Of a DNA stretch of 64,000 nt, positions 16,722 to 20,436 are shown piece after piece. Positions within the stretch are counted from its first letter, which is position 1. Every line of letters starts with the position of its first letter. The notes below the pieces were generated by a model. That model was not told where the DNA came from. It saw only the letters and a list, made by a program, of their open reading frames with translations, and did not search any database. Source of the DNA: Deltaproteobacteria bacterium (lineage in GTDB: Bacteria; Desulfobacterota; GWC2-55-46); assembly GCA_016177845.1 (NCBI GenBank), contig JACOUO010000030.1, forward strand, positions 37,649 to 101,648, given 5' to 3'. The translations under genes and the position numbers were made by a program.

Positions 16722-17087
16722 TCAAATCCATTCAAGCGCGCCCTTGACCCATGCGTAGATGAGCCCGACGGCGAGAACGGCAATAAATACAAACATCTCC
16801 ACAAAGAGGAACATGGATATGCTATGGTCGGTTAATATTACAGCCCAGGGAAAGAGAAAGAGAGTTTCAACATCAAAGACGATAAAGAGTATGGCGATGA
16901 TAAAGAAGTGAATCCTGAAATGCCCGGTATTGGCGTCCCCTACAGGCTCCATACCGCACTCCCAAGGAGTAAGCTTTTCCTTGTAAGGGTTCTTGGGCTG
17001 CATGATGAAGCTCATAAAAAGAGCCATGACGCCCATGAAAGACGCGAACCCGATCATTATGAGAATTGGCAAGTAAGAAAGAAGCAT
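16722..17087 (-). CDS. nuoA: NADH-quinone oxidoreductase subunit A
   Basis: PWECG, ILFIVFDVETLFLFPWA, GALEW. Confidence 0.96.
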   Translation of the reverse strand: MLLSYLPILIMIGFASFMGVMALFMSFIMQPKNPYKEKLTPWECGMEPVGDANTGHFRIHFFIIAILFIVFDVETLFLFPWAVILTDHSISMFLFVEMFVFIAVLAVGLIYAWVKGALEWI

Positions 17088-17163
17088 GTAGACCCTCGTA
17101 AAATTACAATTATGGCAAGATTGTAAGTTCCAATTGTTACACTATATTTGTCAGGGTAGAGCA

Positions 17164-17192
17164 AGATTAAACCAACTTCCAAGATTTGTCAA
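17164..17192 (-). promoter_or_regulatory. Putative sigma70 promoter of the nuo operon
   Basis: Minus strand TTGACA (17192-17187), 17-nt spacer, TAATCT (17169-17164). Confidence 0.5.
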
Positions 17193-17201
17193 GAGGAAAA
17201 A

Positions 17202-17216
17202 TGTATACTGTATACA
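17202..17216. promoter_or_regulatory. Perfect palindrome TGTATAC-T-GTATACA, putative regulator site
   Basis: 7-bp inverted repeat with a 1-nt centre, just upstream of the nuo -35. Confidence 0.45.
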
Positions 17217-17283
17217 ATATACCCTCAAAAAAACCTTGACGACAATCTAACCCATTGAAAACACAGCTTTTTGCCCTCTAACA

Positions 17284-18075
17284 TTACAGTAAAAAAAGGT
17301 CTTTTCTTCTATCTTTGAAGAGATTATTCAGGGGTGTAATGTCCTTGGTGCGGGCCTTTTTGGGGTCGATTTCCACTACCCCGGCCTCCGGTTTCCGTCT
17401 TCCTGCCCTGCAGAGCACCTCTCCGTTGAATGCAGTGACCTGGCTGGTGCCTATGAACTTAAGCTCTTTTCCCTTTATCCTCTCCTCTGTGCCGACCCTG
17501 TTCGCTGTGATTGAAAAAATCCTGTTCTCAAGCGACCTCGTTATCATGGCCTGAGGGCAGTACGGCAGCACAAGGTTTGAAGGGTGCAGAATTACCTCAG
17601 CCCCTTTAAGGGCAAGCGTCCTTGCGGCCTCAGGGAAGACCCAGTCAAAGCATATCATCATGCCGACCTTGGCCTTTCCAATGTCATAGACCTCAAACGG
17701 TGTATCTCCGGGGCTGAATATCTTCTTCTCGTTCCAGAAAAGGTGCGCCTTCCTGTATACGCCTATGAACCCTTTGGGCCCTACGAGTATGGAAGAATTA
17801 AAGACCTTCCTCTTTACCTTCTCATTTATCCCCGCCGCAATAAACATCTTCTTCTTTTTAGCCACTTCTATCAGACTTGCAGCAGCGTATCCAACTTTAG
17901 CGTCCTCGGCAAGGCTCATCGCCTCTTCCTTTGACCTAAACTGGTATCCTGTTGAAAAAAGTTCCGGCAGGACTACAAGTTCGGCATCGAGTGAGCTTAA
18001 CCTGGCCACAGCTTTATCGACATTGGCCAGGATGTCCCCGAAAACAGGCAGGGTCTGAATGAAACCGACTTTCAT
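17284..18075 (-). CDS. Nitrilase/carbon-nitrogen hydrolase family protein
   Basis: Catalytic triad contexts LPEL (Glu), YRKAHL (Lys), ICFDW (Cys); ANRVG. Confidence 0.9.
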   Translation of the reverse strand: MKVGFIQTLPVFGDILANVDKAVARLSSLDAELVVLPELFSTGYQFRSKEEAMSLAEDAKVGYAAASLIEVAKKKKMFIAAGINEKVKRKVFNSSILVGPKGFIGVYRKAHLFWNEKKIFSPGDTPFEVYDIGKAKVGMMICFDWVFPEAARTLALKGAEVILHPSNLVLPYCPQAMITRSLENRIFSITANRVGTEERIKGKELKFIGTSQVTAFNGEVLCRAGRRKPEAGVVEIDPKKARTKDITPLNNLFKDRRKDLFLL

Positions 18076-18260
18076 TTTCTTCTCCCGAAAAGGTATAAAA
18101 ACCGTTAAGGCTTAATAAGCCTAAAAACACAATTTAAAATTGAATTAAGTGGAGTTGAGCCGCAAAAACAGAAGGTACAGCAGAGGAGAATGTTACGGAA
18201 TAAAGCTCATATTAATATTTATTTTTTTCAAAGTCAAGATGCGAGAACAGCAGACAAACC

Positions 18261-18292
18261 AAAGGGAGATGACATTGCTGTCATCTCCCTTT
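18261..18292 (-). terminator. Hairpin, probable terminator of the 34-aa ORF
   Basis: Perfect 14-bp stem AAAGGGAGATGACA/TGTCATCTCCCTTT with a 4-nt loop, 18 nt past the ORF stop. Confidence 0.7.
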
Positions 18293-18310
18293 CAGTGCGG
18301 ATGCGTTCTC

Positions 18311-18415
18311 TTAGCGGCAGCAGCCTGATTTCTTGGCTGCGGTCTTCTTTACGGTGGTCTTCTTCGCTGCTGTTGTCGCCTTCTTTTTCGGAGCAGCCTT
18401 TTTCGTTGTAGCCAT
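18311..18415 (-). CDS. 34-aa Lys/Ala/Thr-rich histone H1-like small protein (not in ORF track)
   Basis: MATTKKAAPKKKATTAAKKTTVKKTAAKKSGCCR; AAGGAGG 6 nt upstream of ATG; promoter upstream and hairpin downstream. Confidence 0.8.
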   Translation of the reverse strand: MATTKKAAPKKKATTAAKKTTVKKTAAKKSGCCR

Positions 18416-18474
18416 TACTTGCCTCCTTGGTTTTAGGGTTTTGAGTTTTAGATCCCTCAACGAAATTCAAGGAA

Positions 18475-18503
18475 AATTTAACATTTAAAAAAATCGGTGT
18501 CAA
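18475..18503 (-). promoter_or_regulatory. Putative sigma70 promoter for the 34-aa ORF
   Basis: Minus strand TTGACA (18503-18498), 17 nt, TAAATT (18480-18475). Confidence 0.6.
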
Positions 18504-18578
18504 CACTATTCCCCTGATTTCTAAAGATTTTATCGGCCCTTCCGATTGAAAACTTTAAAAGATTTTTCAAGCTCAAAC

Positions 18579-18607
18579 TTGCATGTAGCATCTTTGTATG
18601 GTAATTT
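18579..18607 (+). promoter_or_regulatory. Putative promoter of gatCAB
   Basis: TTGCAT, 17 nt, TGn-TAATTT. Confidence 0.4.
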
Positions 18608-18641
18608 AATTTTTTAAAATTTCTTTCAAGGGGTTTGTAGC

Positions 18642-18929
18642 GTGTCAATCACGAAAAAGGATGTCCTGCATGTAGCCGACCTTGCGAGGCTTGCCTTGAC
18701 CGAAGAGGAAATCAACCTCTACACAGATCAGATCCAGAGGATTTTAAGCTACGTTGAAAAACTCTCCGAGCTCGATACAACCGGAGTTGAGCCGACAACG
18801 CACACTGTCCCGCACAAGACCGCATTCCGCGAGGATAAGGCTCTCCCTTCTCTTGCGCAGGATGATGTGCTGAGAAATGCGCCTGAAGCTGAGCGCAGCT
18901 GCTTCAAGGTCCCAAAGATCATCGAATAA
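18642..18929 (+). CDS. gatC: Asp/Glu-tRNA amidotransferase subunit C
   Basis: HVADLARL...FRED...NAP...FKVPKIIE; first gene of gatCAB; GTG start. Confidence 0.95.
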
Positions 18930-18975
18930 AAAAAACAGGTTCAGTTCCTTTCAATATATTTTAAGGAGAAGGCGC

Positions 18976-20436
18976 TTGGATTTAACTTCTTTAACAATAC
19001 ACGAGCTTTCGGAAAAATTATCAAAAAAGGAAGTATCCTCGGTTGAGGTCACAAATGCATACCTCAAAAGGATAGAGTCGCTTGAAGACAGGATACACGC
19101 CTTTATTACTGTCACTCCTGAAGAGGCGTTAAAAGCCGCACAGGCCGCTGACGACAGGATTGCAAAGGGAGATAAGATTACCCCTCTTACCGGCGTGCCC
19201 ATCTCAGTCAAAGACATCTTCTGCACAAAGGATGTACGGACGACCTGCGCCTCAAAGATACTTGGGAACTTCGTACCCCCTTATGACGCTACCGTCACAA
19301 GGAAGTTAAAAGAGGCAGGAGCGGTAATACTCGGCAAAAACAATATGGACGAGTTCGCAATGGGCTCATCGACCGAGAACTCCGCTTTTTACAAGACCCG
19401 CAACCCTTGGGCGCTTGACAGGGTGCCTGGCGGAAGCTCAGGCGGCTCAGCCGCTTCTGTTGCGGCAAGCGAATGCATCGCCTCTGTCGGCACTGACACA
19501 GGCGGCTCAATAAGACAGCCTGCCTCATGCTGCGGAGTGGTAGGGCTTAAGCCGACATACGGCAGGATATCAAGGTTCGGCATGATAGCGTTCGCTTCAT
19601 CGCTCGACCAGGCAGGCCCGTTTACAAAAGATGTCAAAGACTCTGCGATAATGCTTCAGGCCCTTGCGGGTTTCGACCCATCCGATTCTACTTCAATCAA
19701 TACGGAAGTGCCTGATTATAGCTCATTCCTTACAGGCAACCTCAAAGGGCTTAAGGTAGGCATACCCAAGGAATACTTCATCGAGGGAATGGATACGGAT
19801 GTCGAAGCCGCTATCAGGCAGTCCCTTGAGGTGCTTAAAGACCGGGGAGCGGAACTTGTCCCCGTAAGCCTGCCCCACACCGAATACGCCGTTGCCGTTT
19901 ACTATCTCGTGGCAACAGCAGAAGCCTCCAGCAACCTTGCCCGTTATGACGGGGTAAAGTACGGTCTTAGGGTAAACGATACCGGAAGCCTCATCGACAT
20001 GTATAAAAGGACAAGGGATGAGGGCTTTGGCGGAGAGGTAAAAAGAAGGATAATGCTTGGCACATATTCCCTTTCAGCGGGATATTATGATGCCTATTAT
20101 AAGAAGGCCTCACAGGTAAGGACGCTTGTCAAAAACGATTTTGACGAGGCATTCAAGTCCTGTGATGTGATAGCGACCCCTACTGCCCCGACAGCGGCTT
20201 TCAAGCTCGGTGAGAGGGTAGAAGACCCGCTTACAATGTATCTCTCTGACATATTTACGATATCTTGCAACCTTGCCGGCATTCCCGGCATCTCAGTCCC
20301 CTGCGGCTTTACAAAAGACGGGCTTCCGGTAGGGCTTCAGATACTCGGCAAGACCCTTGACGAAGGCACAGTGCTTAAGGCTGCCCACGCTTACGAGCAG
20401 GCAACAGACTGGAACAAGAGAAAGCCTTCGATTTAA
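18976..20436 (+). CDS. gatA: Asp/Glu-tRNA amidotransferase subunit A
   Basis: Amidase signature [21 protein letters not shown]; start moved to TTG 18976 after an AAGGAG RBS. Confidence 0.96.

Follow-up and report, generated by a model that had tools for sequence, protein, structure and literature searches.

A lysine-rich, two-cysteine micro-gene under apparent purifying selection in one clade of uncultured groundwater bacteria: a candidate thiol-bridged polycation

To our knowledge, the Lys-rich "H1-like" DNA condensers of bacteria are all either long proteins or tails attached to folded domains. The chlamydial protein Hc2, which binds DNA and RNA, is 165-237 aa long and is made up of several ~36-aa repeat elements with conserved flanking regions; like BpH1, it consists largely of consecutive Lys-rich pentamers, each of two basic and three mainly Ala, Val, Thr or Pro residues, so that the charge is evenly spaced (PMC2848022). 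AlgP associates with polyphosphate granules (PMC9239181). Coxiella ScvA and Hq1 are small, basic, DNA-binding proteins that are enriched in the form of the organism whose nucleoid is condensed (PMC4766238). Protamines and other sperm nuclear basic proteins lock condensed DNA by means of networks of inter- and intramolecular Cys bonds (PMC7126135, PMC5122968).

A free-standing gene of ~30 codons that encodes just such a tail, together with two Cys, lies on the minus strand of a 64,000-nucleotide stretch of deltaproteobacterial DNA (the window, by which that whole stretch is meant); its product would be a minimal form of the H1-like proteins. The gene, its signals and its neighbours are placed in the window as follows:

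18475..18503, minus strand: promoter, with the -35 element TTGACA at 18503..18498, a 17-nt spacer ending in TGt, and the -10 element TAAATT at 18480..18475
18416..18474, minus strand: 5' leader of ~59 nt, containing the Shine-Dalgarno sequence AAGGAGG
18415..18311, minus strand: coding sequence of the 34-aa peptide, stop codon included (ATG at 18415, TAA stop at 18313-18311)
18243..18310, minus strand: terminator, a perfect 14-bp hairpin in a longer stem (GAGAACG...CGUUCUC), followed by UUUGGUUUGUCUG
18209..18237, minus strand: weaker promoter-like site, TTGACT-17-TAATAT, for the downstream hydrolase; comparable sites in 6 of 13 loci
17284..18075, minus strand: nitrilase-superfamily (carbon-nitrogen) hydrolase of 263 aa, the constant downstream partner
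18642..18929, plus strand: gatC, the divergently transcribed neighbour, given as context only

Translation of the minus strand from 18415 to 18311 confirms the 34-aa Lys-rich peptide, with 11 Lys and no acidic residues, that the first-pass annotation had picked out: MATTKKAAPKKKATTAAKKTTVKKTAAKKSGCCR has 11 Lys, 1 Arg and no Asp or Glu, ends in SGCCR, and carries a net charge of ~+12. It can be divided into ~5 "xxxKK" pentamers, each composed of two basic residues and three that are Ala, Thr, Pro or Val. Among the 266 ATG-started ORFs of 25-60 aa in the six frames of the window, it is the only one with Lys at 25% or above. AlphaFold2 gives it no secondary structure (pLDDT 58.8), and it is predicted to be intrinsically disordered.

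How does this peptide stand with respect to the systems already described? Its pentamers have the make-up of those of Hc2 and BpH1, and its ~5 pentamers amount to approximately one 36-aa Hc2 element. The "H1-like" label that it was first given is to this extent apt, as a description of composition. As a statement about descent it finds no support: there is no detectable homology to Hc1, Hc2 or AlgP, and none to Hc2 and BpH1 in Pfam, NCBIfam or a profile search. Unlike Hc2 and BpH1, moreover, the peptide is free-standing, measures 28-34 aa across its family (plus one 67-aa gene call), has no flanking domains, and has two Cys. Pseudomonas AlgP and the tail of mycobacterial Hlp/HupB resemble it in being low-complexity Lys/Ala/Pro polycations, with KPAA/AKKP repeats that bind polyanions, but their repeats are long and are usually attached to folded domains, whereas here the repeat, with two Cys, is the whole protein. 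ScvA is similarly tiny; neither it nor Hq1 has a Cys pair, as far as we know. These two Coxiella proteins (set against the peptide by description) differ from it in composition and in being tied to a developmental cycle. Protamines, like the peptide, are small disordered polycations, and the two are comparable in size, charge density and Cys pair, with cross-linking of the peptide itself putative. Protamines are, on the other hand, Arg-rich, eukaryotic, and the property of a terminally differentiated cell, while the peptide is Lys-rich (11 Lys to 1 Arg) and was recovered from bacterial MAGs, and neither homology to protamines nor a developmental switch is in evidence for it. Judged by homology or by architecture, the peptide is outside the Hc1, Hc2 and AlgP families; the likeness is probably one of working mode.

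The signals that surround this reading frame were found exactly as first described (TTGACA-17-TAAATT, AAGGAGG and a perfect 14-bp hairpin), and they are close to consensus. The promoter matches at 10 of 12 positions and has a TG before its -10 element (an extended -10); the Shine-Dalgarno sequence, at 18428..18422, is placed 6 nt 5' of the ATG; the hairpin (18292..18261; 14 perfect pairs, 4-nt loop) starts 18 bases past the stop codon. A 71-nt segment made up of the hairpin and its flanks folds at -38 kcal/mol (z = -6.8), and none of 200 shuffled sequences does as well. Comparison between loci shows that the "complete transcription unit" proposed in the first-pass annotation has been kept in relatives in each of its parts, promoter, Shine-Dalgarno sequence, frame and terminator. 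An exact TTGACA and an extended -10 of the TGnTAnnnT type are present in 18 of the 18 loci examined; every relative has AAGGAGG or GGAGG 5-8 nt 5' of the ATG, at the end of a leader of 43-68 nt; and a strong hairpin follows just past the stop codon in every relative (whole-segment folds of -25 to -45 kcal/mol), mostly with a clear T-run. The sequences of these terminator hairpins are unrelated between lineages: as read from the alignments, it is the structure that is conserved, despite sequence turnover. The leader has no comparable property (RNAalifold gives 0 conserved pairs), and positions 17000-20000 of the window have no Rfam match at E up to 1. The micro-gene is probably transcribed independently and highly expressed, and we infer that the peptide is translated in vivo and abundant.

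(Two technical notes. A longer imperfect stem, GAGAACGCA...UGCUGUUCUC, encloses the 14-bp hairpin; this longer stem begins directly past the stop codon, at 18243-18310 on the minus strand, and its base would be opened by a terminating ribosome. The sequencing runs that hold this stretch are DNA runs of groundwater metagenomes only, with no RNA run among them.)

Genes of this kind readily escape notice. In the ORF listing for the window, the 34-aa frame appears only as a 49-aa ORF with a TTG start (18460..18311), beside an out-of-frame ORF of 90 aa (18506..18234) that spans both promoter and terminator. With the default cut-off of 60 aa, just the latter would be visible, and at that cut-off it holds, as had been pointed out, that the ORF track misses the 34-aa ORF and offers a longer out-of-frame one in its place. 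The ATG is fixed as the start of the small ORF by a relative (L004) in which a stop codon lies immediately 5' of it. Searched exhaustively with a profile, 1.84 billion representative proteins yielded two matches, both belonging to the same micro-family: a peptide of 31 aa, and a 67-aa gene call that is the peptide behind a spurious upstream extension. Searches of Pfam and NCBIfam at E up to 10 gave nothing beyond noise (DUF6465 at E = 1.5, Rv3852_fam at E = 5); a word-indexed homology search with the 49-aa extended form considered 36 candidates without retaining any at E up to 10; in a collection of 15 billion proteins, neither the window's peptide nor any of the seven relatives' peptides looked up has an exact match; and a search of the literature turned up no description of such a Lys-rich two-Cys micro-peptide. 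The family is in effect unannotated, and gene callers almost never call the small gene. The finding also makes plain that genes so short and of such low complexity are overlooked systematically.

Relatives were accordingly fetched by way of the neighbouring 263-aa hydrolase, and the DNA upstream of it was scanned in the 20 closest loci, all of them in "Deltaproteobacteria bacterium" MAGs and many from groundwater; 12 of the 20 have a matching small ORF on the same strand. The full set comprises 18 distinct homologues of 28-34 residues, 13 of them from syntenic genome loci, three further ones from metagenome contigs and two from the profile matches; L003 MATAKKATAKKKTTAKKTTKKAAPKKSGCCR, L006 MAIAKKAPAKKKTAAKKTAAKKAPAKKRGCC, L010 MAATKKPVKKKTEKKPAAKKPTAKKSGGRCGC and L020 MPAKKTSCKKTSTAKKSTAKKSTTKKGCKSK are examples. 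The alignment consensus is MATAKK-PxxKKK-TxAKK-TTAKK-xxKK-SGCCR; K5, K6, K10, K18, K19, K29, G31 and C32 are invariant, while the residues between the Lys pairs are exchanged among Ala, Thr, Pro and Val. Evidence that what is retained is a protein comes from the pattern of change. Indels involve whole codons only. Differences at codon positions 1, 2 and 3 number 620, 465 and 1136; the median dN is 0.21 and the median dS 1.26 (for the 46 pairs with a finite dS, the remaining pairs being saturated). Codon-position differences and dN/dS values together imply purifying selection on a protein, and the 34-aa frame, whose absence from relatives would have told against the gene, is conserved in them. 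With high confidence, then, though on comparative grounds, we regard the 34-codon gene as genuine and as maintained by selection within a single group of uncultured bacteria from groundwater. It combines purifying selection with near-consensus expression signals and is invisible to gene callers.

The Cys residues follow a rule of a different sort. The terminal CC of the window's peptide had been singled out, but CC as such is not a conserved feature: every family member has exactly two Cys, arranged as CC, as CGC or, in L019 and L020, as Cys8 and Cys28. On the sequences at hand, this two-Cys rule is the most specific conserved feature of the family. (A note on codon usage: 85% of the family's Lys codons, 121 of 142, are AAG, versus 57% in the long ORFs of the window; the preference may serve to avoid slippery A-runs, or may be due to selection for translation.)

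The carrier lineage is narrow and uncultured. In a tree of the hydrolase, all 13 carriers belong to one clade of 16 (support 98/96) that also contains three non-carriers, and the small gene is absent from the locus in outgroups that have gatC-hydrolase synteny; the distribution points to a single origin and a few losses or relocations. On that evidence the small gene seems to have arisen, or to have been inserted, in the gatC-hydrolase spacer of one sub-clade, and an origin de novo is possible. (Spacers of 166-231 nt between gatC and the hydrolase, without the small gene, are seen at L015:3835-4001, L018:1855-2035 and L017:1103-1334.) Upstream, gatC has been replaced in L006 and L014 (by ligA), in L008 (by a secG-like gene and others) and in L019 and L020 (by a gene for an AMP-dependent ligase). 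The divergent neighbour at the RGCC-type loci, L006:1587-3647 (minus strand) and L014:1-1266 (minus strand), is an NAD-dependent DNA ligase with a ligA-like N-terminus.

Downstream, nothing changes: the small gene is directly upstream of the hydrolase in 13 of 13 genome loci and in all 10 of the metagenome contigs that reach that far. The enzyme itself is a generic one, its best match being NF040852 with 300 bits, under that model's cut-off of 500, and at 50-60% identity it is found in many phyla, there without the small ORF. Is the hydrolase dependent on the small gene's promoter? A TTGACA-type promoter intervenes between the terminator and the hydrolase in six of the 13 loci (the window, L002, L004, L011, L012 and L013); in the other seven (L003, L006, L008, L010, L014, L019 and L020) the 84-182 nt gap between terminator and hydrolase contains no sigma-70-like promoter, so that in many relatives the hydrolase is probably transcribed by read-through from the small gene's promoter. 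A leaky terminator may thus feed the hydrolase in approximately half of the lineage, and shared regulation of the two genes may explain their constant adjacency.

What would such a peptide do? The reading that we favor, by analogy, and to which we would give an even chance, is that it acts as a nucleic acid-binding polycation, abundant and free-standing, whose molecules are bridged through their thiols in the manner of a protamine. The two parts of this proposal can be weighed separately. A role in binding a polyanion, suggested by the sequence, has somewhat the better of the argument; bridging between peptides through their thiols is put forward tentatively, and we would sooner doubt it than assert it. 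The proposed mechanism is simple. The peptide would be a genetically encoded polycation that binds chromosomal DNA most probably, and RNA possibly; it would neutralize the charge of the polyanion and compact it, as the Lys pentamer repeats of Hc2 and H1-type proteins and the protamines do. Its two thiols would make each peptide bivalent, and disulfides, or a shared metal ion, would join peptides into dimers or chains of much higher charge valence, so that condensation could be switched by redox state or by the supply of metal. That the number of Cys is fixed while their position is free fits inter-peptide bridging better than it fits a specific vicinal-dithiol site, and it is the prospect of such bridging that makes protamines and the other sperm nuclear basic proteins the closest functional analogy. 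If the Cys do bridge peptides, the system would constitute a bacterial counterpart of protamine-type, redox-locked DNA packing, and would also offer a simple, synthesizable means of exploring polycation valence and nucleoid compaction.

Several considerations temper this proposal. DNA is proposed as the ligand on the strength of composition, no DNA-binding family showing any detectable homology to the peptide, and RNA, ribosomes, polyphosphate or acidic proteins would suit a Lys-rich polycation just as well. Thiols in the cytoplasm are normally reduced, and disulfide bridging would need oxidizing conditions or a metal. A role on the nucleoid leaves the constant pairing with the hydrolase unexplained. 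One can nevertheless extend the proposal to a thiol-switched "micro-protamine" acting on the nucleoid or on another polyanion, in which oxidation or a bridging metal would string the peptides into DNA-condensing chains and reduction would free them; the gene would have had a single origin, perhaps de novo, in the spacer upstream of a housekeeping hydrolase that now depends on the gene's promoter, and it would stand for a wide class of free-standing polylysine micro-proteins that has been overlooked in uncultured prokaryotes. Taken as a whole, the extended version is unlikely.

Of the other explanations, the one that survives best, itself improbable, makes the thiols primary: the peptide would be a polycationic thiol serving as a redox or metal (Zn, Cu, Fe, Fe-S) buffer or carrier on polyanionic surfaces, and might cooperate with the adjacent Cys-dependent hydrolase. 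This would account directly for the two-Cys rule being the family's most specific conserved feature, and it would give meaning to the constant adjacency to an enzyme of the nitrilase superfamily, whose members use a catalytic Cys. The invariant pattern of Lys shows, however, that selection acts on the polycation itself; two thiols per 30 residues would make a poor buffer by mass; the neighbours compared across loci include no metal or redox regulator, transporter or chaperone gene; and the family to which the hydrolase belongs is widespread without the peptide.

The next, also improbable, is that the peptide is a lineage-specific micro-protein associated with the ribosome or with RNA, binding rRNA or tRNA in the manner of bS22, bL37 or bTHX. 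The known lineage-specific ribosomal micro-proteins are small, very basic, stand-alone and limited to particular clades. The present family answers to that description in its ~30 aa, its extreme basicity, its strong promoter and ribosome site, its stand-alone gene and its restriction to one clade, and in most loci its neighbour is gatCAB, which acts in translation. bS22, bL37 and bTHX are also close to it in size (~24-33 aa), are likewise very basic, and are often unannotated and lineage-restricted. The resemblance does not go deeper: no NCBIfam ribosomal model matches; the peptide, unlike those three, has regular pentamers spaced by Ala, Thr and Pro, paired Cys, and a length that varies between close relatives. 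That variation (28-34 aa), and the freedom of the spacer residues, would be unusual for a peptide occupying an rRNA pocket, and the gatC neighbourhood is not retained in L006, L008, L014, L019 and L020. The ribosomal micro-proteins known to us are rich in Arg, Lys and His, without regular Ala/Thr/Pro spacers or paired Cys, which also counts against the ribosomal explanation.

A third possibility is that the ORF is a regulatory leader: whether transcripts run on through the hairpin into the hydrolase gene would depend on translation of the Lys-rich ORF, an attenuation that senses Lys-tRNA or translation status. The arrangement of the locus invites the suggestion. Order (ORF, hairpin, hydrolase) and strand are constant in the 13 genome loci and the 10 metagenome contigs; the ORF-hydrolase pair persists beneath four different upstream neighbours; seven of the 13 loci have only the bare 84-182 nt gap, without a sigma-70-like promoter, before the hydrolase; and the Lys codons are the invariant positions. 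What attenuation would require of the RNA is another matter. No antiterminator appears: when the whole transcript is folded, the 14-bp hairpin is the dominant element, the leader is without conserved structure, and the ORF is as purine-rich as the 5' arm of the hairpin is, so that the two cannot pair. The retention of exactly two Cys and of the G-C motif, with a Cys relocated in L019 and L020, is foreign to codon sensing, which needs neither. Nor does the hydrolase make a convincing target: it is a generic member of the nitrilase superfamily and is not known to be connected with the supply of lysine, it has its own TTGACA promoter in six loci, and at 50-60% identity it occurs in many phyla without the ORF. 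On account of the selection on Cys and on G-C, the missing antiterminator, the generic character of the hydrolase and its wide occurrence without the ORF, we rate this explanation low.

That there is no protein gene here at all, the locus specifying a small RNA, or else that the true gene is the hydrophobic antisense ORF or the out-of-frame 90-aa ORF, is very improbable: promoter, Shine-Dalgarno sequence, ATG, stop codon and terminator all serve the 34-aa frame of the minus strand, indels preserve that frame, Rfam has no match, and the 90-aa ORF is interrupted in L006, L011 and L019 and overlaps both promoter and terminator.

(A further technical note concerns the antisense strand, where an open frame of 51 aa at 18333..18488, plus strand, is rich in Phe, Val and Ala and resembles a membrane peptide. 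Its wobble positions coincide with those of the sense frame, and in no relative is it interrupted within the coding sequence. L004 and L011, however, offer it no usable start, and elsewhere it runs to 37-114 aa from non-ATG starts and without a Shine-Dalgarno sequence; that it stays open is a consequence of a Lys/Ala/Thr frame having no TTA-, CTA- or TCA-type codons. A reading of this ORF as a type I toxin was considered and set aside, since neither its start nor its ends are conserved and it has no Shine-Dalgarno sequence. The antisense and the out-of-frame ORFs were both rejected as by-products of composition that are not conserved.)

The family can also be sought without reference to its neighbours. 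A context-free DNA pattern for KKSGCCR followed by a stop codon, run over a metagenome collection, gave 44 matches: 12 are true family members, and about 32, close to the number estimated beforehand, are chance matches without a Lys-rich ORF. (The one match to the C-terminal DNA pattern among viral contigs is likewise due to chance, in an unrelated frame.) All 12 true members represent a single locus type, gatC, divergent small gene, hydrolase and nuoA, as far as their contigs reach. In other groundwater metagenomes (runs X3-X6), many contigs match only the coding part of the gene, at 18310-18386, and diverge on both flanks. Sequence matches of this kind suggest that groundwater communities contain many diverged relatives with the peptide gene.
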